64,000 nt of DNA from Anaerolineae bacterium (GTDB lineage: Bacteria > Chloroflexota > Anaerolineae > UBA1429): positions 2,688,001-2,752,000 of the forward strand of contig OY776562.1 in the NCBI GenBank assembly GCA_963675785.1. Reading direction: 5' to 3'. Positions 3 to 10,464 of this stretch are shown in pieces. Within the stretch, counting starts at the first letter, position 1; the number at the start of each line of letters is the position of its first letter. The notes beneath the pieces are model-generated. The model did not search any database and had not been told where the DNA came from. It saw nothing but the letters and a program-made list of their open reading frames with translations. The translations under genes were made by a program, and so were the position numbers.

Positions 3-191
3 CTTTTTGGCGGCGGAGATGCCGCAGCTGCTGCAGGACAAGCCTGCCACAGTGCTTGCCACAGCGCCTGCGTACACGATGCTTGCCATAGTGCTTGCGT
101 GCATGATGCTTGCCACAGTGCCTGCCATAGCGCCTGTGTGCATAGCGCTTGCCACAGTGCCTGTCATAGCGCCTGCGTAAGCCGTGTCTAG
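3..191 (+). CDS. 3' end of a truncated CDS with a Cys/His-rich repeat tail; putative radical SAM substrate
   Basis: Manual translation from nt 3: [62 protein letters not shown], with TAG at 189-191. Repeat units differ mainly at synonymous positions. The ORF ends 30 nt before the radical SAM gene. Its start is outside the window. Confidence 0.85.
42..179 (+). repeat. Coding tandem repeat of 12/15-nt units (ACHS / ACVH[DS])
   Basis: gc(c/t)tg(c/t)ca(c/t)ag(t/c) units. 11 Cys codons, spaced 4,4,5,4,5,4,4,5,4,4 residues. Confidence 0.9.
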
Positions 192-221
192 TCGTAAGAA
201 AATACCTGGAAAGGCTATTTC

Positions 222-1634
222 ATGTCTATAGAATCTGCGGAACGGCTACAAAGCCTTGCAGATCAGCTCATCAACTCCACCAGGAGTTACATATACATTC
301 GGCCGGAGGACGGCCTTATCATCCTCCGCCCGAACCGTTTGCACTATTTGAACAAGACTGCCGTCTTTGAGCTGCAAACCCTATATGACGATCCCGACGG
401 GCCCAATACTGAAAAGGTCGTTCAACTGGTCTGTGAGCGTTACGGCGCCGAACCGAACCAAGTTCGCGAAGACTTGGAAAAGCTGCTTTACAGTCTTTCG
501 GCACTGCTAAACGACGACATCAGCATGGCACCCAGCGCGCATATCATGCGTTTTGGCTCGCACAATCGTCAATTGCCAGTACTCTCTGAAGTGGCACTGA
601 CCTACAACTGCCAGAACAAATGCACTTTTTGCTATGCCGATGCGCCCAAGCGTGGATCAGAATTGCCCGAAATGACCACCGAGCAGGTCAAGGTGATCAT
701 TGACCGCATCTATGACGAGGCCCACTGCCCAACGTTGTCGTTTACTGGGGGAGAGCCCACGCTGCGCAAGGATTTGCCCGAGCTGATTCGTTATGCCAAG
801 GGCAAAGGCTTGCGTGTCAACCTGATCACCAACGGCGTCAAGCTGGCTGATATGGCTTTTGTGCAAAGCCTGGCTGATGCCGGGCTGGATTCCGCTCAGG
901 TCAGCATCGAGGGTGGTTCGGCTGAGGTGCATGATGCCATTACCCGCAATCCGGGCTCGTGGGCCAAGGCCACACAGGGTGTCAAGAATCTACGTGCCTG
1001 TAATATTCATGCTCACACCAATACCACCATCTGTGGCCGTAACCGCGATCACCTGCAAGAGCTAGTGGAATTTGCAGCAAAAGAGCTGGGCTCTAGTTAT
1101 TTTTCGATGAACATGGTTATCCGCACGGGCACAGCCTTGCGGCACGATGAAGACGATATGTCTTACGAGAGCATGGCGCCCATCATCAAAGACGTGCAGC
1201 GCTTTGCCGATGAGGCCAACATCCATTTTGAGTGGTATTCGCCGGTGCCTTACTGCATGTTCAACCCTGTGCAGGCCGGTTTGGGCAGCAAGTCCTGTGC
1301 CTGCGTCGATGGCCTGCTCTCAGTAAATCCGGCAGGACAGCTCATTCCTTGCTCTAGCTTTGGCCAGGGCATTGGTGACTTGTTGAATGAGCCTTTTGAA
1401 AAAGTGTGGAATTCGCGTACGGCGCTGTATTGGCGTCGCAAAGAGTTTATGCCGCCCATGTGCCAAAAGTGTGAGATCAGCGATATCTGCTGCGGCGCCT
1501 GCCCGCTTTACTGGGAGCAGCGAGGCTGTTTTGATGAGCTAGAACCCTATGCGCCGGGGGGAAAGCTTTTTTCCAATGCACTATGGCGCCTACGAAAGCG
1601 CCTGTGGTCGGGTACACACGGCGTTGGGCTTTGA
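222..1634 (+). CDS. Radical SAM/SPASM peptide-maturase-like enzyme with N-terminal PqqD-like (RRE) domain
   Basis: CQNKCTFC (CxxxCxxC) and TGGEP motifs. SPASM-type cysteines in SCAC...PC...CQKC-x5-CCGAC. N-terminal ~95 aa resembles PqqD (LNKTA...LCERYG..PNQVREDL). Confidence 0.9.
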   Translation: MSIESAERLQSLADQLINSTRSYIYIRPEDGLIILRPNRLHYLNKTAVFELQTLYDDPDGPNTEKVVQLVCERYGAEPNQVREDLEKLLYSLSALLNDDISMAPSAHIMRFGSHNRQLPVLSEVALTYNCQNKCTFCYADAPKRGSELPEMTTEQVKVIIDRIYDEAHCPTLSFTGGEPTLRKDLPELIRYAKGKGLRVNLITNGVKLADMAFVQSLADAGLDSAQVSIEGGSAEVHDAITRNPGSWAKATQGVKNLRACNIHAHTNTTICGRNRDHLQELVEFAAKELGSSYFSMNMVIRTGTALRHDEDDMSYESMAPIIKDVQRFADEANIHFEWYSPVPYCMFNPVQAGLGSKSCACVDGLLSVNPAGQLIPCSSFGQGIGDLLNEPFEKVWNSRTALYWRRKEFMPPMCQKCEISDICCGACPLYWEQRGCFDELEPYAPGGKLFSNALWRLRKRLWSGTHGVGL

Positions 1635-1648
1635 TTGGGGAGGTATAC

Positions 1649-2833
1649 ATGCCTGATACTACCTATAAAACGCGTAGTGTAGAGCTGGGCAACTTTCACG
1701 GCTATTTGGAAAAGAAAATCCAAGAGCTAGAGCGCTGTGAAGAGAGCCTGAACCAAGCACGAACCCGTCTTACCGAGGAATTCAAAGCAGTGATGGCAAG
1801 CTGGCAAGAGCTTTATGGCTATTGCTATCCTACGCTCACGCAAATGCGGCATGAGGTGCCTGCTGATTTCAAGGAGCGAATCGACCGCATTGAGACCGAA
1901 GAGCTGAAAAAAATCAGTCAAGAGATTGCCGACTTACAGCAAGAAATCACAGAGAAACGCGCCCGCTCTGACGAACTACTCGGCCTGGCCCAGGGTGAAG
2001 TAGAGCAGATGCGCAAGCAAAACCCAGAGATCGACGAGCGCGAAGAAGCCCTCAAAGCTCAAGTCGTTAAATACCAGGATGACTATGCCGACGCCTATGA
2101 AGAAATCGATCGTCTCTCTCATGGTGCATTCGGCTGGTTGACTAACGCCGGATCCCTGCGTGCCCAGAAAAAGCGCCAAAAACAGGCGCGCAAGCAACAG
2201 GAAAAGGCACTGGAAAAACTGCGGCAAGTGCGCCAGGAATGGCTCACAAAAGTAGAAAGCGCCGCTGATACCCAATCCGAATTACGCGAAGAATGGCAAA
2301 CCGTGGGGGTGCGCCTGGCTGAAGCCGAGACGCGGCTAGAATATCTCACAAGCAACACAGAAAAACTGGGCGAACAGAATGCCATCAAGCGCATACTCGA
2401 CGAGATGACCACCTCCCCACAAGCCGACGGGGAATTGGGTGAAAAGCTTGCTGCCTTTGCTCAGCAAAATGTGCTACGCAAACAGTACGAACGTGGAGTC
2501 TCTGCCGCTGCCGAGTTTACTGGCTATACCCGCGGCGTCGTCAAAGGCGTGCGCACATTCGATAGCAGCGTGGCCAAGGTTATCACCGAGCAAAAACGCT
2601 ATAGCTTGAGCCGCGTCGAATTGGTCATCCAGGAATCGGCACAAGAGATGCTCGACATCTGGTACAACGTGCGCAGTGAACTGAGCAAGAACAAGGGATT
2701 CTCGCAACACCCGGCCGACCTGGCTGACTTGTTGGAACCCATCATCAAAACGCAACTGACCAACGAGAAAATTGCTGACCTTTTCGAATCGATGGGCAAA
2801 GCTCTTAATCGCGGAACCGCCGTTTGGGGCTAA
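1649..2833 (+). CDS. Long coiled-coil hypothetical protein
   Basis: E/Q/K/R-rich heptad pattern. GGAGG precedes ATG 1649, which is preferred over the track start at 1583. Confidence 0.7.
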   Translation: MPDTTYKTRSVELGNFHGYLEKKIQELERCEESLNQARTRLTEEFKAVMASWQELYGYCYPTLTQMRHEVPADFKERIDRIETEELKKISQEIADLQQEITEKRARSDELLGLAQGEVEQMRKQNPEIDEREEALKAQVVKYQDDYADAYEEIDRLSHGAFGWLTNAGSLRAQKKRQKQARKQQEKALEKLRQVRQEWLTKVESAADTQSELREEWQTVGVRLAEAETRLEYLTSNTEKLGEQNAIKRILDEMTTSPQADGELGEKLAAFAQQNVLRKQYERGVSAAAEFTGYTRGVVKGVRTFDSSVAKVITEQKRYSLSRVELVIQESAQEMLDIWYNVRSELSKNKGFSQHPADLADLLEPIIKTQLTNEKIADLFESMGKALNRGTAVWG

Positions 2834-2851
2834 CCTGACTGGAGTAATTCG

Positions 2852-3343
2852 ATGAAAAAGTTCCCATACATCCTACTTTCGCTGACTTCTATCCCGTTCC
2901 TGGCCTTGGGGCTCCTCTTTTTGATTTCGGCAGTAGGGAATAGCACGCGCCTATTGCCAGGGCTCGCCTTCATCGCCATCGGCATCTTTTTGCTAGTCAT
3001 CGGTCTGCGCAAGTTGCGTAGAATTGCGGCCACCAGCCCCGATGTGCTGCGCACCGGTGCCATTGACCTAGCCAAACAACTGGGGGGCGAACTCACTGTG
3101 TCGCAGCTCCGCGCCGAATTCAAAATCTCGCAGCAGCAGGCGCAAGATGTGTTGAGCCAGCTCGAGGCTGAAGGCAACTGTGAGCGTGAACAGCGCGAAG
3201 AGCGTCTCGTCTATGTATTCAACGGATTGCTGCCTTCTATGGTTGAAAAATCCTGCCCTTACTGCGGTAACAAACTCCCTGTTCGCAGTTCACTGCGCAA
3301 GTGTCCCAACTGCGGTGCTCAACTAGAAATCACCAAATCATGA
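2852..3343 (+). CDS. Membrane protein: 2 TM helices, winged-helix-like middle, C-terminal zinc ribbon
   Basis: Two N-terminal hydrophobic segments; GGELTVSQLRAEFKISQQQAQDVL; CPYC...CPNC. Confidence 0.75.
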   Translation: MKKFPYILLSLTSIPFLALGLLFLISAVGNSTRLLPGLAFIAIGIFLLVIGLRKLRRIAATSPDVLRTGAIDLAKQLGGELTVSQLRAEFKISQQQAQDVLSQLEAEGNCEREQREERLVYVFNGLLPSMVEKSCPYCGNKLPVRSSLRKCPNCGAQLEITKS

Positions 3344-5124
3344 AGCTCCAGCGTCTCCTGCTGGGCCTGGGTTTACTTTTGTGCATAGCCATCCTTGCCT
3401 CATTGGCAATTCGCGCAATACCAGGTCCCGCTGGAGAGATTGAGCCGTTCGATTCACTCTTTGAGGGTATCATCCGAGAGGATGAATACCCTCAAAGCAA
3501 AGAGTACGTCCTCGGTGATCTCGCCTCCATCCCCATCGTTCAAAACAGTACCTCAGATCGCACCTGGATCGAGGCCAGTCTGGTAGCTCAATCTGATGAC
3601 CTAGTCATCTGGTTGGAGGATGGCCTTGTCGTTGAGCAAGAGGCCTTCGATCACATCCTCTCTGTTTTTGAAGAGTCGTCTCTCCCAGTTCTCGCAGCCG
3701 TCTATCCCGACGAAACCAGTTCACTGGCTAGCGAGGAGCGTTTCAATATTGTCATTGCACAGTATAGTGGTTCGTCTGGCTATTTTTCCTCGTGGGTGAC
3801 CACAGACGCCCCCAGTAATGCCGTCTATGTTTCAGTCGTGTTGAACATCGCTGCTGAACCGGGCAATGATACCTTTGATTCGGTGCTAGTTCATGAGATG
3901 GGTCATTACTTGCAATGGCTGGCCGATGATGACGAAGACACCTGGGTCAGCGAGGGATTCTCGACGCTCATCGAAGACCTCTGCGGCTATACTACCTCAC
4001 AACGCGCCACCATTGCCTACGGTCTACCTTCGGATACCCAACTGAACACTTGGGGATCGCAAAACTCTGCCTCCCACTATGCCATCTCCTTTGCCTTTTT
4101 TCGTTTTCTCCATGACCGCTACGGCATAGAAGCCATTACCGATATCGCCCATTCGCCCGCGAATGGCTTGGAGGGCATACTCGACGGCCTGGCAGCAGCC
4201 GGTTTCGAGATCGACGAGCAAGACTTGATGGCAGATTGGGCCTTGGCTGGCGTCGCCGCCACAGCCGGTATGCCCGAATACGGCTATGCAGATATGGAGC
4301 CGCATGTCGTGCCCTATCCCTTGTCCTCCGCCTCAGATTCGTATGCCCAAGAAACTGCCGAATACGCCACCGACTATTACTTGATAGATACACGCACCCC
4401 CATCACCCTGACTTTCTCTGGAGAGACTACAACATCGCTCATGCCCCAGCCTCCAATGGAAACGAGGGTGTGGTGGTCGGGTAACGGAGACCGGCAAACA
4501 ACCTGGCTAGAGTTGGAACTGGATCTTACGGACATGCAGACTGCCAACCTGAGCTATGACCTCTGGTACGAGTTAGAAGAACGCTGGGATTGGGCCTATG
4601 CGCTGGTCTCAACACCTGATGATAAAGAATGGACACCTCTTCAAACCGCTAATATAGCTCAGGAGAATCAGGAAAACGGGTGGTTCGGTTATACCGGCAT
4701 GTCAGGTTCTGCAGAAGATGAGGGGAAATGGGTAGAAGAGATTGTGAATCTGGATGCCTATTGCGGCCAAGTCATCCATCTACGCATTCAGTGCGAGAGC
4801 GACGATGCCATCAATTTGGGGGGAATTGCCTTGTGTGATGTGCGGCTCAACGATGTGTCGGTGGCCTCTGGGGGAGCAGAAGCTCGTTCGGTGTGGCGCA
4901 CCCATGGATTCAAGCACGTTTGGCCAACCGTAACACAGGATTATGTGGTACAGATCATCTCTCCTGAGGCGAAAAGTGTGGAACGGCTCGAACTCACAGA
5001 GGAGGAAACACAAATCGCCCTCTCCCCTGAACAGGGTGAGAGTGTCATTCTGGCCATAACGCCCCTGGCCAGGTGGACCATCTATCCTGCCGAATACTCC
5101 CTAGACCTTGAATACCTCGACTAG
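3340..5124 (+). CDS. Secreted or anchored zinc metalloprotease (immune inhibitor A / M6-M30-like)
   Basis: N-terminal signal/TM. VLVHEMGH followed by TWVSEG. C-terminal WYELEERWDWAY beta-sandwich as in InhA-like proteins. ATGA overlap with the upstream stop. Confidence 0.75.
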   Translation: MKLQRLLLGLGLLLCIAILASLAIRAIPGPAGEIEPFDSLFEGIIREDEYPQSKEYVLGDLASIPIVQNSTSDRTWIEASLVAQSDDLVIWLEDGLVVEQEAFDHILSVFEESSLPVLAAVYPDETSSLASEERFNIVIAQYSGSSGYFSSWVTTDAPSNAVYVSVVLNIAAEPGNDTFDSVLVHEMGHYLQWLADDDEDTWVSEGFSTLIEDLCGYTTSQRATIAYGLPSDTQLNTWGSQNSASHYAISFAFFRFLHDRYGIEAITDIAHSPANGLEGILDGLAAAGFEIDEQDLMADWALAGVAATAGMPEYGYADMEPHVVPYPLSSASDSYAQETAEYATDYYLIDTRTPITLTFSGETTTSLMPQPPMETRVWWSGNGDRQTTWLELELDLTDMQTANLSYDLWYELEERWDWAYALVSTPDDKEWTPLQTANIAQENQENGWFGYTGMSGSAEDEGKWVEEIVNLDAYCGQVIHLRIQCESDDAINLGGIALCDVRLNDVSVASGGAEARSVWRTHGFKHVWPTVTQDYVVQIISPEAKSVERLELTEEETQIALSPEQGESVILAITPLARWTIYPAEYSLDLEYLD

Positions 5125-6474
5125 GCGTCGCGCCAATTGATCCTCTTGTTCCGGCAACACCGTGCGCAAATCGATCAAGAGACGATCCTGCTGAATGCGC
5201 GCTACCACCGCAGGGCTGCCAGTGCGTAGGGCAGCCGCTTGTTCCACCGTTACGGAGATGCTCAACAAAAAGGCGGGGAGGGTTTCATCGGGCAAGGAAC
5301 CGCCACCCACAGCCGAACGGCCTTCGACGATCTCCCAACTACTACCAACAGGCCCCACCTTTTCCAAAAGGGCCTCAGTGCGTTCAGCCAACTCGTCGAG
5401 GGTGGTAGAGATCATTCGCCAAACAGGTACGGCACGCTCAGCCTCGCCCCGCAGGTAATGCAGCAAATTTGCCTGAATGCCAGCGATGGTGGTCTTGTCG
5501 ACGCGTAGGGCACGTGTCAGCGGGAAACCTTTGAGTTGGGCAATGAGCTCGGCCTTGCCGACGATAATACCAGCCTGCGGCCCACCCAACAGTTTGTCGC
5601 CGCTAAAAGTAATGATATCGGCACCGGCCTGCACACTCTCTTGCACCGTAGGTTCGTGCACCAATCCATAGGCCTGCGTATCCAAGAGGGTGCCGCTGCC
5701 CAGGTCGTCAAAGACGGGAATATCGCGTTGATGGGCCAGCTCGACCAATTCTGTTAGTGAAGCTTCATGGGTGAACCCGCGAACCCGGAAATTGCTAGTA
5801 TGCACACGCATCAACGCAGCGGTACCTTCGCCAAGCGCAGCCTCGTAATCGCGAATGTAGGTGCGATTGGTCGTGCCAACCTCAACCAACTGAGCACCAC
5901 TTTGAGTCATCACATCGGGGATACGGAAGCCACCGCCAATCTCCACCAGTTGTCCACGTGAGATGACTACCTCCTGACCACGTGCCAAACAGGAGAGAGT
6001 AAGAAGCACAGCCCCGGCATTGTTGTTCACTAGCAGGGCTGCCTCGGCGCCGGTCAAACGGCATAACAAATTCTCAGCATGGGAATAGCGAGAGCCGCGC
6101 TTGCCGCTTTCCAGATCGAATTCGAGATTGCTATAGCCCTGGCCGGCCTGCTGCATGGCCTGCAACACGGCCCCGCTCAAAGGGGCCCTGCCCAAATTGG
6201 TGTGTAGCACTACACCTGTGGCATTGATCACCGGCACTAGCGAAGGGGCCAACAGAGCCTGGGCAGTAACAAGCACACGCTCACGCAACGTTTGATCACC
6301 ACAGTACTCGGCGCCAGCCAAAATGGCGTGGCGCTCTTGATCAACCTCACGGCGAGCCGCTTCCAAAAGAGTATCACGCCCCAGAGAGGCCAAATATTCA
6401 TCCAGGTCACGCAATAATGCATCTACCGAAGGAAGCGCGCTCAAACGCTGCTGCAAGTCTGTCATAAAAGGCAT
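5101..6474 (-). CDS. selA: L-seryl-tRNA(Sec) selenium transferase (selenocysteine synthase)
   Basis: VINATGVVLHTNLGRAPL, SRGQLVEIGGGFRIPDVM, FSGDKLLGGPQAG, RALRVDK. Confidence 0.97.
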   Translation of the reverse strand: MPFMTDLQQRLSALPSVDALLRDLDEYLASLGRDTLLEAARREVDQERHAILAGAEYCGDQTLRERVLVTAQALLAPSLVPVINATGVVLHTNLGRAPLSGAVLQAMQQAGQGYSNLEFDLESGKRGSRYSHAENLLCRLTGAEAALLVNNNAGAVLLTLSCLARGQEVVISRGQLVEIGGGFRIPDVMTQSGAQLVEVGTTNRTYIRDYEAALGEGTAALMRVHTSNFRVRGFTHEASLTELVELAHQRDIPVFDDLGSGTLLDTQAYGLVHEPTVQESVQAGADIITFSGDKLLGGPQAGIIVGKAELIAQLKGFPLTRALRVDKTTIAGIQANLLHYLRGEAERAVPVWRMISTTLDELAERTEALLEKVGPVGSSWEIVEGRSAVGGGSLPDETLPAFLLSISVTVEQAAALRTGSPAVVARIQQDRLLIDLRTVLPEQEDQLARRLVEVFKV

Positions 6475-6479
6475 ACCTT

Positions 6480-6788
6480 TTACATGTCATTCCATTGGAA
6501 GCGGGCCATATCCACATGGTTGCCAATGAACTCGACGCCCTCTTCTTCTAGCATGAGCCGTTGTAAGGGAACGTTGTTGGCCTCATCCTGGCCGGTACGA
6601 ATCTCCCCCTTGGCATTCACCACACGGTGCCAGGGCACGTCATTTTGAGGTGCAGAACATAAGGCGCGCAAAGCCCAGCCAACGGTTCGAGCAGCACCGG
6701 GAGACCCTACCGCGCGCGCTATCTGGCCATAAGTTACCACATAACCGGCCGGAACCTTGCGCAATGCCGCATAAATCTCCTCGAACAT
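6480..6788 (-). CDS. MGMT-family alkyltransferase-like protein (ATL/YbaZ type)
   Basis: VVTYGQIA, ARTVGWAL and PWHRVVN; Trp replaces the catalytic Cys. Start at ATG 6788 directly after the tsaD stop. Confidence 0.9.
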   Translation of the reverse strand: MFEEIYAALRKVPAGYVVTYGQIARAVGSPGAARTVGWALRALCSAPQNDVPWHRVVNAKGEIRTGQDEANNVPLQRLMLEEEGVEFIGNHVDMARFQWNDM

Positions 6789-6789
6789 G

Positions 6790-7878
6790 CTAGCCCTCCA
6801 CCAAAGCAAGGCTTGGCACCACATCGAGATCAAGGCCGCTACGCGTGCCGTCTAAATAAGCATAGTGGCCAGCCATAGCCACCATCGCGGCGTTATCAGT
6901 GCAGTATTGGATAGGGGGAACGCGCACAGGCACAGGCATGGTTTCGATCATACGCTCTCGCAGAACGCGGTTGGCCGAAACGCCACCAGCCAACAACACC
7001 ATTGCGGCACCGTAACGCTCTGCAGCGGCGCGTGTCTTACAAGTCAAAATATCAACCACGGCATCCTGAAAACTTGCAGCCAGATCAGCCACTGGCAAAA
7101 TCTCGTTGACGTTTTCGGGTGTGGCATCGACCAGCCTTTGGCCACTGGCCTCAACCTCAATGCCCCTCTCGCGTTGTAATTGCTGTACCAGCCTGAGCAC
7201 AGCCGTCTTGAGCCCGCTGAAAGAAAAATCAAATTCGTCGACGTTCAACGAACGAGGCAGTTCAAAAGCGTGAGGATTGCCGTTCTGGGCGGCCTTTTGA
7301 ATACTGGGGCCACCGGGATATTCGAGACCCAGCAGACGGGCGACCTTGTCAAAGGCTTCGCCAGCAGCGTCATCGATAGTACGACCCAACAGCGTGTAAT
7401 CATGATGATCCCGCACCAGTATGAGCGACGTATGCCCACCCGATACCACCAAACATACAGCCGGAAATGCTGGCGCCACAAAATCATCGATAGCAGTATT
7501 GGGCGGCACCAGCCAATTGGCGTATACATGGGCTTCTAGATGATTGATGCCCACCAAAGGCAGATTATGGGCCATGGCGATAGCCTTGGCCGCATTTAAA
7601 CCCACCAACAAAGAACCCGCTAATCCGGGTCCATACACCACGGCCACGGCATCCAGATCAGACCAGGTAACCTCCGCCTTTTCCATCGCCTCGCGGATAG
7701 TTGGTGTAATAGCCAATATGTGCTGGCGAGAGGCCATCTCAGGAAAAACCCCGCCGTACTTGCGGTGCAACTCTATTTGAGAAGCCACCACATTCGAAAG
7801 CAGCTCTCGCCCATCCCGTAGAACGGCAGCAGCCGTCTCGTCGCAAGAGCTTTCTATGCCTAGAATCATTGTCATCAA
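6790..7878 (-). CDS. tsaD: tRNA N6-threonylcarbamoyltransferase
   Basis: LGIESSCDETAAAV, GGVFPEMASRQH, HLEAH, VSGGHT, DDAAGEAFDK, CTDNAAM. Confidence 0.97.
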   Translation of the reverse strand: MMTMILGIESSCDETAAAVLRDGRELLSNVVASQIELHRKYGGVFPEMASRQHILAITPTIREAMEKAEVTWSDLDAVAVVYGPGLAGSLLVGLNAAKAIAMAHNLPLVGINHLEAHVYANWLVPPNTAIDDFVAPAFPAVCLVVSGGHTSLILVRDHHDYTLLGRTIDDAAGEAFDKVARLLGLEYPGGPSIQKAAQNGNPHAFELPRSLNVDEFDFSFSGLKTAVLRLVQQLQRERGIEVEASGQRLVDATPENVNEILPVADLAASFQDAVVDILTCKTRAAAERYGAAMVLLAGGVSANRVLRERMIETMPVPVRVPPIQYCTDNAAMVAMAGHYAYLDGTRSGLDLDVVPSLALVEG

Positions 7879-7887
7879 TCAGATCCC

Positions 7888-10464
7888 TTACAGTGAAGGC
7901 AGTGTTCCCAGCCACAACGAACGCCCGCTGAGCACAAAGATGCGCTGCGTCTCTTCATCTACATACAGGCCGCGAATGTCTTCCAACTCGCTGCCGCCGA
8001 TCTTGGACTGAAACTGGCGTACATAGTTGCCGTCTTTATCGAACTGGACGATGCGCTCGTTCCCAGAATCGGCCACATAGATGTAACCCACAGCTTCTGG
8101 GTCCTGCTCGCCAGACACGAAAATTGCCGTCGGGTTCAGCATGGATTCGGGTACGCTGAGAGAATTGAAAGGCTCTTGTACCCCATTGTAATACTTGTCG
8201 ATGTGCCCATCGGCAAAGAGGATGTACATATTGCCATCAACAGCCAAATCCACGGCGCCGGTTAGGTCAGATCCCAGATTGGCACTGATATAAGCAGAAG
8301 GAGCCTTGGTGTAGGCATCATCCACTGGCTCATACTTGAGCAGGGAGCCTAGCAGCGTATCGAGTACATAGAGGTTTCCATAATACGCCGACATGGCCAC
8401 AGGCTGGCGCCAGGTCTGGCTATTGGCCACCGGAAGTGCCGTTACACCCAAAGCATCATCAAAAGCAAATAAAGTTCCAGCGCGATCCAACACCGCAAAC
8501 ACCGAGGTACCCCGTAAACCATCATCGCTAATCCAGGCCATATCCACCAGCTCTGAGGCAGCCGTGCCATCGTACACCTGCCCCTCCTGGACGAGCAACG
8601 GGTCAGTGCCTACAGCCTCCAGAGCATCGCCTACATCATTCATCACATAGTGGTAGACACGGTTGCTGCCGCGATGAAGTAGGTATAAATCGTTATCCTG
8701 AAGCAGGATGCGCGCTGAATCGGTTGACGACGAGGTGTACTCATCCAGTTCGGCCAACTTGTAAAAAGTATAAATGCGCTCGACGACATTGATTTGGTCC
8801 AGGTCATGCTCAACGCGTGTCTTGAGTGTCGTTAACAGCGTGTCATCAGGGCGCATAGCCAAGCCTTGCTCGGACTGCAGTAGCGCCTCTTCAAGATACT
8901 GACGCTGTACGGCTGCATCCGTCGCAGAATCGGCCATCTGGTAGGCGTTCTGGGCAGCAAGCTGTATCGTATCGAATTGGGTTTCGATGGCCCGGTCATA
9001 TTGCACACGTGTGATGAGCACAAAAATCAACATCACAATGGGAATGGCCATGGCAATAAGTACAAGAGCCCGCCCACTCAGGGCAACTGTTTCCTTTTTT
9101 GCTGTCTCTTTTGGACGCTCTGGAAGCTTGTCTGGAAGAACACCCACGGCCCACTCCTCCATTCGACGAATAGCCCCACTAAACCAGGCCCTTGTTCGAT
9201 CCCAAGTCTCATGTCGACGCTGTTTTGTCACGGGGCGATCGACAGTCGACTCGTCGAGAGCATCGCCCTCATCCCAATAGTCTTCATCCTCGGGCTCATT
9301 GTCCAGCTCGACAGATACCGGTTCCTCTGGCGCAGCTTTTTCCCAAGGGAAGGCAAACTCGCTCTTCCCAGATTCCTCTTCCTCAGGTTCTGTTGGCCCC
9401 TGGGTTGATTCAGGTTCAGAATCTAGCTCTGGTTCTATATCCAGCTCTGGCTCGAAATCGGCTTCTGACTCAACAAGATCAACTTCTGTTGCGGACTCGA
9501 ACCCATCATCCGTTTCGTCTTGATCAATGTCTTCATCAGACTCTGTCGCGATGTCAGGGTCTGCAAAGAGCCCCTCGTCATCCTCAACTTTAATTACTGT
9601 CTTGATCGAATCAGATTCGTCGGCCTCTATCTCGGCCAACGCGTCAAATTCATTTTCTTCTTCGACGTACTCCTCATCATCGTCCAAAATCTCAACGATG
9701 GGCAAAGTCTCTTCCTGCACTTGCTCACTTGGCAATCGCGAGGGCGCATCGAGAAACTCGACGCGATGCAGAGGCACCGTCGAAGCCGGCATGTGCAAAT
9801 CTTGAGATGAGGTTGAGGCGACAAAAGCAGCGACACGGGCATCTCCGTTCAGCCCATCCCAATGTGTCTTGCCCTCAGCATCAGAATTGCCCACCAGACC
9901 AGCGAGCAGATCGCGCAAGTTTATATCGGGGGAATCACTCGTTAACAGCAAAGCATCCTGCTCAGCCAGGGGGACAGAGAAAAAGCGAGCGTTCACGCCC
10001 AACTCCAGACCTGCCACTCGGGTTGCATCCGCAAACTTGTTGGTTGAGTGGCCGTCTTCCAGACCATGAACTTCATAGAACTTGGTACCTGCCAGACCCG
10101 CCATACAGACAGGCCCAAGGAGCATAGCGTAGGCTATAGTCTGATCCCACAACAACGCACCAACGCCAGCCAGTATTTGATTCTCGACATCAGTGCGAAG
10201 GTTGTGCTCAAAGAGCATCTTGTTAGCTGCCGTCAGCGCCGCCTTTAAGCAAAGTCCCGGCTCATTCTCAGCGGCAAGAATGGCAGCGTCCATCGCTGCA
10301 AATATTTCTGTGCAAATGCGCTGAGGCAAATCGCTGGCAAAAGCCGGCGTAACCAAGCCAACAAAAGTCATCTGCTCATCAAGCTCTTGAACAGACACAT
10401 GCCAATCAGCCGACACAATATCTGCACCAGCTTTAAAGATCCGCACTCCCGTTAGGTCTGCCAT
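7888..10464 (-). CDS. Large membrane protein: degenerate PP2C-like N-domain, acidic disordered linker, TM helix, extracytoplasmic beta-propeller (NHL-like)
   Basis: LKAALTAANKMLF and DALLLTSD resemble the PP2C fold. D/E-rich region in the middle, one TM (ALVLIAMAIPIVMLIFVLI), and YIYVADSGNERIVQFD NHL-like blades. Confidence 0.65.
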   Translation of the reverse strand: MADLTGVRIFKAGADIVSADWHVSVQELDEQMTFVGLVTPAFASDLPQRICTEIFAAMDAAILAAENEPGLCLKAALTAANKMLFEHNLRTDVENQILAGVGALLWDQTIAYAMLLGPVCMAGLAGTKFYEVHGLEDGHSTNKFADATRVAGLELGVNARFFSVPLAEQDALLLTSDSPDINLRDLLAGLVGNSDAEGKTHWDGLNGDARVAAFVASTSSQDLHMPASTVPLHRVEFLDAPSRLPSEQVQEETLPIVEILDDDEEYVEEENEFDALAEIEADESDSIKTVIKVEDDEGLFADPDIATESDEDIDQDETDDGFESATEVDLVESEADFEPELDIEPELDSEPESTQGPTEPEEEESGKSEFAFPWEKAAPEEPVSVELDNEPEDEDYWDEGDALDESTVDRPVTKQRRHETWDRTRAWFSGAIRRMEEWAVGVLPDKLPERPKETAKKETVALSGRALVLIAMAIPIVMLIFVLITRVQYDRAIETQFDTIQLAAQNAYQMADSATDAAVQRQYLEEALLQSEQGLAMRPDDTLLTTLKTRVEHDLDQINVVERIYTFYKLAELDEYTSSSTDSARILLQDNDLYLLHRGSNRVYHYVMNDVGDALEAVGTDPLLVQEGQVYDGTAASELVDMAWISDDGLRGTSVFAVLDRAGTLFAFDDALGVTALPVANSQTWRQPVAMSAYYGNLYVLDTLLGSLLKYEPVDDAYTKAPSAYISANLGSDLTGAVDLAVDGNMYILFADGHIDKYYNGVQEPFNSLSVPESMLNPTAIFVSGEQDPEAVGYIYVADSGNERIVQFDKDGNYVRQFQSKIGGSELEDIRGLYVDEETQRIFVLSGRSLWLGTLPSL

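Follow-up and report, generated by a model that had tools for sequence, protein, structure and literature searches.

A near-invariant Cys-His repeat tail on a membrane protein and its adjacent radical SAM/SPASM enzyme point to an undescribed protein-tail modification system in bacteria and Asgard archaea

The DNA analyzed here is a window of 64,000 nt from an Anaerolineae bacterium (contig OY776562.1, positions 2,688,001 to 2,752,000; G000:C1:2688001-2752000), whose genome is a single contig of 3.22 Mb with a completeness of 94.84%. Its left edge carries, on the plus strand, the end of a gene for a membrane protein with a tandem cysteine-histidine tail and, directly behind it, a gene for a radical S-adenosylmethionine (SAM) enzyme with a PqqD-like RiPP recognition element (RRE; RiPP, a peptide made on the ribosome and modified post-translationally) and a SPASM domain. 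Together they point to an undescribed system, present in many bacterial phyla and in Asgard archaea, in which the enzyme would modify the tail of the membrane protein. In frame +3, no stop interrupts the reading between the left edge of the window and a TAG at 189-191, and the part inside the window (3..191) comprises the last 62 codons and the stop of a 587-aa gene. The complete gene spans G000:C1:2686428-2688191; its in-frame ATG at 2686428 lies 1573 nt before the window and is preceded by a ribosome-binding site, AGAGGGGGAA. The condition under which the initial annotation would have fallen, a frame lacking an upstream start or ribosome-binding site, does not hold. The suspicion voiced in the initial annotation, that the repeat ends a larger protein rather than a short precursor, was borne out by this protein and by 48 complete relatives of 263-935 aa (median 576), among which no short precursor was seen. 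The tail itself, the presumed modification site (42..188, plus strand; (ACHS/ACVHD)n), follows a Gly/Ala linker, and our recount of its 49 residues gave the same 11 Cys and 10 His, with a Cys spacing of 4 or 5. A 30-nt spacer (192..221) with a Shine-Dalgarno-like GGAAAGG at 208-214 separates it from the 470-aa enzyme (222..1634, plus strand), whose ATG at 222 was confirmed. No terminator-like site was found on the plus strand between the two genes, which are probably co-transcribed.

The codons of the tail are mixed (TGC 9 and TGT 2, CAC 5 and CAT 5, AGC 5 and AGT 4, GCC 6 and GCT 5), and the initial annotation had read this synonymous variation as selection on the peptide. Orthologs support that reading, as they hold the peptide constant while the DNA drifts. 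Within a 16-aa tail block compared across 22 orthologs, amino acid identity was 1.000 at a nucleotide identity of 0.805, and the 231 pairs contained 1808 synonymous and 0 nonsynonymous codon differences. Across 23 orthologs of the class, column identity reached 0.98-0.99 in the tail versus 0.37-0.92 elsewhere in the protein. The tail peptide is under very strong purifying selection and is not a drifting low-complexity repeat. The DNA is loosely periodic, with 27- and 39-nt periods reported by Tandem Repeats Finder over window positions 53-178. The tail motif pattern occurs three times in the 3.2-Mb genome, each time within the tail, and a reversed-pattern control gave 0 occurrences, which puts the tail well outside what chance would produce. 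Two shadow open frames at the tail (7-180 on the plus and 3-167 on the minus strand) are by-products of the repeat and unlikely to be genes; shadow frames of a similar sort recur opposite the enzyme gene in high-GC relatives.

The grammar of the repeat was computed on 137 unique tails. Consecutive cysteines are four residues apart in 1079 of 1246 gaps, and His stands directly behind the Cys in 1011 of 1082 units. The third unit position is filled by Ser (771), Asp (180) or Asn (24), and the fourth is Ala in 996 of 1011. Tails contain a median of 7 units (range 3-10), and the final Cys is mostly followed by VSG, with about six residues left to the C-terminus.

Hydropathy identifies just two hydrophobic segments in the tail protein, residues 1-25, read as the signal peptide, and residues 283-308, behind which stands RKRK. 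An AlphaFold 2 (AF2) model built from a 52-row alignment (mean predicted local distance difference test, pLDDT, 75.5) contains a confident beta-sandwich at 28-238, a transmembrane (TM) helix at 292-307 and a confident helical domain resembling a winged helix-turn-helix (wHTH) at 336-448. On this model, the protein appears to cross the membrane once: behind the signal peptide lies a beta-sandwich ectodomain and, past the single TM helix, a helical domain and the tail on the cytoplasmic side. The resulting N-out/C-in topology would place the tail in the cytoplasm, within reach of an iron-sulfur enzyme that has no signal peptide. The ectodomain matches PF09972 (DUF2207 N-domain) weakly, at 23.1 bits against a cut-off of 24.4; language-model neighbours in the ESM Atlas carry DUF2207/DUF2207_C (score 0.92), and some relatives have a precomputed PF09972 or PF27846 domain. 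None of the NCBIfam models was matched by tail proteins, whether from the window, of the (CA)n type described below or from other phyla. The Foldseek likeness of the ectodomain to ribophorin I and to M1 aminopeptidase N-domains was set aside as a general beta-sandwich resemblance (TM-score 0.22-0.25) without a functional clue.

By all three of its domains, the enzyme is a member of the RRE-dependent radical SAM/SPASM peptide maturase superfamily. The PqqD-like RRE (PF05402, residues 33-93) scored 28.9 bits against a cut-off of 23.4, the radical SAM domain (PF04055) 94.9 bits, and the SPASM domain (PF13186) 28.0 bits against 21.5. The CX3CX2C motif (C130/C134/C137) is nearly invariant in 33 homologues. 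Cysteines of the SPASM region lie at 345, 359, 361, 377, 414, 417, 423, 424, 427 and 436 and conform to the two-cluster, seven-Cys pattern (C359..G..C377 and C414-x2-C417-x5-C423-x3-C427, plus C345 and C436), with C359, C377, C417 and C423 invariant in the same 33 homologues. In the AF2 model (pLDDT 93.7), the RRE is formed by three strands (24-42) and three helices (45-96), all at pLDDT >90. The top fold matches were SkfB, SuiB, anSME, ChlB and CteB; over its full length, the enzyme model could be aligned with RRE-SPASM RiPP maturases such as SuiB (456 columns, TM-score 0.64). The three domain profiles proposed for checking in the initial annotation all matched; the Cxxx-repeat models TIGR04114 and TIGR04115 proposed along with them were not reached.

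At the level of curated families, the window enzyme reached no NCBIfam cut-off among the best 25 of 80 matching families, the lowest of which scored 72.4 bits; TIGR04115 is absent from these 25 and hence scores below 72 bits. The scores for AhbD (TIGR04545, 145.7 bits) and NirJ2 (TIGR04055, 135.3 bits) compare with cut-offs of 500. The ACGX enzyme model TIGR04340 gave 90.1 bits for the window enzyme and 67.5 for a (CA)n-type enzyme (cut-off 400). For the window enzyme, HxsC (TIGR03977) scored 78.5 bits against 267.9, HxsC4 (NF038332) 99 against 500 and StsB (NF045574) 91.5 against 625; for the (CA)n-type enzyme alone, SkfB (TIGR04403) scored 92.5 against 300 and AlbA (NF012164) 89.5 against 850. 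No cut-off was reached by the (CA)n-type enzyme or by five enzymes from other phyla either. At E ≤ 1e-30, the enzyme has matches in about 258 clusters of 50% identity, and a quick tree groups the enzymes by tail class. This grouping is consistent with co-diversification of enzyme and tail, though not proof of it, as relatives share labels.

Among 41 related genomes, searched for the enzyme at E ≤ 1e-40, the two genes occur together. Enzyme matches came from 29 of them, including 23 of the 24 others in the window's family and 5 of 16 from other families, and matches to the membrane tail protein from 28; 28 genomes have both genes, 12 have neither and one has the enzyme alone. The latter genome (G010) is 82% complete and its enzyme gene lies at a contig edge, while one genome of the same family that lacks both genes (G008) is 98% complete. 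Contig ends truncate four of the 29 loci with the enzyme. In 22 of the 25 assessable loci, a CH tail lies directly upstream of the enzyme, on an open frame of 215-498 aa or more. Two others have a (CA)n tail in this position, on a similar protein ending ...CACACACAGCACACAGGGR, next to enzymes that are 32% identical. In the last (G034), the tail gene lies 2.1 kb upstream with an inserted 687-aa gene in between. Cys-repeat neighbours of enzyme homologues, which the initial annotation had left to be looked for, are therefore the rule. Synteny of the whole region within the window's family is uninformative on linkage; two genomes from two other families (G040 and G034) keep just four genes, namely those for the tail protein, the enzyme, a coiled-coil protein and a TM/zinc-ribbon protein. 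The 687-aa insertion of G034 (L070, 10620-12683, minus strand) encodes a beta-helix/repeat surface-type protein, and L196 (G045) resembles this arrangement.

The pairing extends far beyond the class. A search with residues 300-587 returned 90 proteins, most of them ending (ACH[S/D/N])n...ACVSGGxx, with records labelled Helarchaeota, Odinarchaeota and Promethearchaeota among them. Two tails labelled Promethearchaeota (P0078 and P0089) consist of CHSx units followed by CACACACAGGGW, and these hybrids link the Cys-His and Cys-Ala tail types in one protein. A motif scan was conducted with a degenerate DNA pattern for three CHxA units on one genome per GTDB species. It yielded at least 120 stretches in at least 80 loci; its counts are those of a sample, which overlaps the set of relatives in that some loci lie on the same contigs. 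Among the matches listed, to which all following scan counts refer, the tail grammar recurs in differing DNA in about 17 phylum-level groups. Their titles name Chloroflexota, Bacillota, Spirochaetota, Planctomycetota, Myxococcota, Acidobacteriota, Hydrogenedentota, Kiritimatiellota, Abditibacteriota, Pseudomonadota, Gemmatimonadota, Desulfobulbus alkaliphilus DSM 24258, Nitrospiraceae, Omnitrophota, Aminicenantes, Sumerlaeota, Vecturithrix, Thorarchaeota and others. Of these, D. alkaliphilus DSM 24258, a culturable carrier, has the pair in locus L146. One contig labelled Propionibacteriaceae (L155, UBA8946) is near-identical to the Anaerolineae contig L133, with enzyme branch lengths of 0.002, and probably sits in the wrong bin.

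An open reading frame with at least three CHxxC in its last 70 residues was present in 74 of the 80 loci, and about 71 true tail loci were left once L082, L099 and L127 had been set aside as short or odd. An enzyme homologue follows on the same strand within 0-300 nt in 57 of these (in L100 as a fragment at a contig end). In three more it lies elsewhere in the locus: 1.1 kb downstream in L088, 0.5 kb downstream in L137, and in L079 (Thorarchaeota, 2274-6435) divergently on the opposite strand, 617 nt upstream of the tail gene. No enzyme was found within the 8-kb locus in the remaining 11. Six of these have little or no room on the relevant side (the archaeal L080, L111 and L132 none upstream; L113, L124 and L095 little downstream), L139 and L150 belong to the clade with the inserted gene, and L087 is an additional tail copy whose genome contains a linked pair as well; for L101 and L129, none of these reasons applies. 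All five exception genomes that were searched contain the enzyme elsewhere, and no tail was found on the gene upstream of the enzyme in the genomes of L101 and L129.

We consider it probable, from comparative genomics, that the adjacent RRE-radical SAM-SPASM enzyme acts on the cytoplasmic tail while the membrane protein stays intact. Our grounds for taking the tail as the likely substrate are the anatomy, the extreme purifying selection on the tail peptide, the near-perfect co-occurrence and the adjacency of the two genes from Chloroflexota to Asgard archaea. A cytoplasmic enzyme with an RRE and a two-cluster SPASM domain would modify the tail post-translationally, and its substrate would be the whole membrane protein instead of a leader-core peptide that is cut and exported. 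As to the chemistry, which we infer more weakly, Cys-centred crosslinks appear most likely. Two-cluster SPASM enzymes with Cys-rich substrates typically form Cys-to-carbon thioethers, as in sactipeptides and ranthipeptides; (CHxA)n and (CA)n tails have nothing but Ala-Cys in common; and the H-x-x-C register resembles that of N-x-x-C and C-x3-D repeats, on which other thioether enzymes act. On these three grounds we favour one crosslink per four-residue unit, a sactionine- or ranthionine-type thioether onto a neighbouring residue, which would turn the tail into a rigid ladder displaying a row of His side chains, possibly for metal binding.

Several observations weigh against this interpretation. 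A search of the family as a whole found no conserved stretch resembling a leader ahead of the tail, and the tail is poorly defined in the AF2 model, where pLDDT falls below 50 from residue 521. Topology is less certain in distant relatives: by crude hydropathy, many of the 48 complete ones have a second hydrophobic stretch, at the position of a buried helix in the model. Linkage is not obligatory, as a minority of tail genes (L087, L101 and L129) lie away from the enzyme. The invariant His has no assigned role, and the data would fit a C-C crosslink, epimerisation or Cys oxidation as well as a thioether. Prediction of a complex between the enzyme and tail residues 488-587, with SAM and three 4Fe-4S clusters included, scored 0.00 without a verdict and speaks neither for nor against binding.

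The enzyme gene is followed on the plus strand by two further genes with a conserved place in the neighbourhood. The first (1649..2833; longest open frame from 1583, likely ATG at 1649 behind GGGGAGG) encodes a coiled-coil protein of about 394 aa without a Pfam family; it is kept beside the enzyme in G040, G034 and at least 10 motif-scan loci and takes third place in the cassette form typical of Chloroflexota/Myxococcota. The fourth gene of this form (2852..3343) encodes a protein of 163 aa whose N-terminus has hydrophobic segments and whose C-terminus is a zinc ribbon (PF13248, 29.1 bits, cut-off 27); it also shows a weak wHTH-like similarity below cut-offs and is kept in G040, G034 and at least seven motif-scan loci. 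Next to it lies an InhA-like (M6-type) HExxH metalloprotease with a MAM domain (3301..5124, plus strand; PF20773, 70.6 bits), which was not found in the G040 and G034 loci and is a neighbour only in the window's own family, outside the more widely conserved cassette. Elsewhere, in 21 of the 33 linked loci that offer at least 2.3 kb downstream, the enzyme gene is followed by one for a membrane protein of about 300-340 aa; the other 12 mostly belong to the Chloroflexota/Myxococcota form, with the coiled-coil protein in that place. Pfam gave no match for this membrane-protein family (L086, 2597-3538, and 29 further loci), whose neighbours in the Atlas belong to unnamed Spirochaetota and Thorarchaeota clusters. 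A sister form (L071 of G026, 2236-7281; also L029, L057 and L058) comprises a 560-aa DUF2207-like protein ending ...GGCACACACAGCACACAGGGR and, behind it, a 32%-identical RRE-radical SAM-SPASM enzyme, flanked by a 142-aa TM and zinc-ribbon protein and a CehA/McbA PHP hydrolase.

Further genes lie near the cassette. A SelA-like gene on the minus strand (5101-6474), named by reading its sequence and, by tblastn, matched to orthologs of relatives only, suggests that the organism uses selenocysteine; it is near the cassette only via family-level synteny. Another minus-strand gene (7888-10464) encodes an 858-aa protein with a long acidic low-complexity middle and one hydrophobic segment, of which the C-terminal half alone is conserved in relatives. 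Upstream of the window (L002, 3-7011) stand three consecutive membrane proteins of 730-820 aa, the third with a PMT_2 match (62.6 bits), and GT4 and WecG/TagA glycosyltransferases lie between them and the tail gene. This neighbourhood suggests a cell-envelope glycan context within the window's family. No Rfam families were found in the window.

The main remaining rival to tail modification is an unmodified tail that binds metal or an iron-sulfur cluster, for which metallothionein and the SlyD tail are the comparisons. The enzyme would then act elsewhere, its target being a lipid, a different protein or a small molecule, with the membrane protein as its partner, scaffold or metal/cluster donor. 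CH-Xn motifs are reported to build copper sites in BURP-domain cyclases (PMC12164859). The tail is rich in Cys and His at a regular i, i+4 spacing, some tail genes are unlinked from the enzyme, and the best sequence matches of the enzyme include the non-peptide SPASM enzymes AhbD, NirJ2 and GDGT-MAS. Yet AhbD and NirJ match at a generic level only (130-155 bits, where 500 would be required), and the RRE lies above its Pfam cut-off and adopts the canonical three-strand/three-helix fold. In the radical SAM/SPASM superfamily, a PqqD-like RRE marks peptide or protein substrates. Enzyme clades also track the tail type, including the His-less (CA)n tails, and we regard this alternative as unlikely, while still deserving attention.

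A classical RiPP on a giant carrier, with the modified tail cut off, for instance by the InhA-like protease, and released as a free peptide, would fit an enzyme architecture typical of RiPP maturases and a metalloprotease encoded two genes further downstream of the enzyme in the window. That protease is kept in the window's own family only and was not found in the G040 and G034 loci, and no transporter or protease recurs in the roughly 71 tail loci, the recurrent third gene being the membrane protein of an unnamed family. The tail moreover is predicted to lie on the cytoplasmic side of a membrane-anchored protein, and the carrier is conserved and always large (at least 263 aa). Because no protease or exporter is conserved, we hold release of a free peptide to be improbable.

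Very little speaks for the proposal that the tail is a series of overlapping haem-c-type motifs to which the enzyme attaches tetrapyrroles. CHSACH can be read as CX3CH and CVHDACH as CX4CH, and the top NCBIfam matches are the haem-pathway SPASM enzymes AhbD and NirJ2, but the AhbD scores are far below cut-off. A PF00490 query, for porphobilinogen synthase (ALAD), gave no sign of tetrapyrrole synthesis in the single-contig genome of the window, at the completeness given above; PF00490 was likewise not found in four of five other system-bearing genomes, whose completeness is not given, and ferrochelatase was found in none of the five. Cytochrome c maturation is extracytoplasmic, and the tail is predicted to be cytoplasmic. 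We rejected haem attachment on the ALAD and ferrochelatase results and on the related (CA)n tails without His. The notion of a meaningless low-complexity or DNA-level tandem repeat that neighbours a radical SAM gene by chance, to which the 27- and 39-nt periods might point, is refuted by the 1808 to 0 codon differences and by the motif-scan loci, with the same peptide grammar in different DNA across about 17 phylum-level groups and a conserved gene linkage, and has practically no chance of being correct.

The closest known systems include the maturases of sactipeptides (SkfB, AlbA) and of ranthipeptides/SCIFF (CteB), which share the order of RRE, radical SAM and two-cluster SPASM domains, a substrate gene directly upstream and regularly spaced Cys. 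The enzyme described here is far below every cut-off of these families, and their precursors are 40-60 aa long, whereas the substrate here would be a tail borne by a membrane protein of about 580 aa; the C-H-[S/D]-A unit with its invariant His and the absence of a conserved protease or exporter set the present system further apart. PapB, the freyrasin enzyme, is a thioether-forming RRE-radical SAM-SPASM maturase with a CX3D-repeat substrate. Haft's ACGX (TIGR04340) and CXXX-repeat (TIGR04114/04115) systems also bring together a SPASM radical SAM enzyme and a Cys repeat in tandem units of four residues, and Ala-Cys is common to ACGX, ACHS and (CA)n units; their substrates are short peptides, while here it would be a protein tail. 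Precedents for SPASM enzymes that act on Cys of proteins staying intact are QhpD, which makes Cys thioethers in the protein subunit QhpC, and anSME, which oxidizes Cys in folded sulfatases. Neither shows a sequence-level family match, and their substrates have no repeat tail and are not membrane-anchored.

Of published systems, the HXS antiphage system is nearest in concept; in it, the repeat protein HxsA is matured by the radical SAM enzymes HxsB and HxsC (PMC13128918). It shares with the present module the radical SAM maturation of a full-size protein with short His-containing tandem repeats and a product that is a functional protein, not a secreted natural product; it differs in having two radical SAM enzymes plus HxsD, H-x-S repeats without Cys in place of C-H-S-A, and a periplasmic HxsA that carries a peptidoglycan-binding domain. 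The present module also stands in stable synteny within a bacterial family. A role in antiphage defence is unsupported here, as PADLOC returned only generic viperin-core and coiled-coil matches and the module is syntenic with housekeeping genes in the family. DUF2207 proteins (PF09972/PF20990), such as S. mutans SMU.243 (PMC10457818), share the signal peptide, beta-sandwich, TM region, cytoplasmic domain and low-complexity tail, and some relatives end in ...GGGW or GGGR; the window protein differs in its one internal TM segment. DUF2207 proteins are not known to have a Cys-His tail or a radical SAM partner, and no publication was found on a pairing of DUF2207 with radical SAM.

The initial annotation did not recognize the repeat as a described class, and our comparisons agree: no NCBIfam cut-off was reached, the tail protein was unmatched and no paper with the tail strings was found. 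Pfam, NCBIfam and PADLOC contain no model for the tail, the protein family or the enzyme clade. No published description of the tail or the pairing was found either, although the supplements of published genome-mining atlases of radical SAM RiPPs, outside our search, might list the cluster. The machinery and the logic of a Cys repeat are familiar; novelty lies in the proposed class of substrate, a tail on a DUF2207-type membrane protein, and in the C-H-[S/D]-A unit, the breadth across phyla and the additional genes of the cassette.

RRE radical SAM/SPASM enzymes have mostly been studied as makers of small secreted peptides, and here one is tied to the tail of a full-size membrane protein, a tail that is almost frozen from Chloroflexota to Spirochaetota, Planctomycetota, Bacillota and Asgard archaea. 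More tentatively, and with the balance of our judgement on the other side, the pair may represent an ancient, pan-prokaryotic tail-maturation system with novel chemistry, such as a Cys-to-His (H-x-x-C) ladder, that forms a membrane-tethered metal-binding or redox element on the cytoplasmic face. The compact two-gene system is open to direct testing by co-expression and mass spectrometry. If the tail is modified as proposed, it would be a second case of radical SAM-matured repeat proteins, after HXS (2026), and would provide a first mechanistic handle on DUF2207-type proteins, which are widespread and of unknown function.

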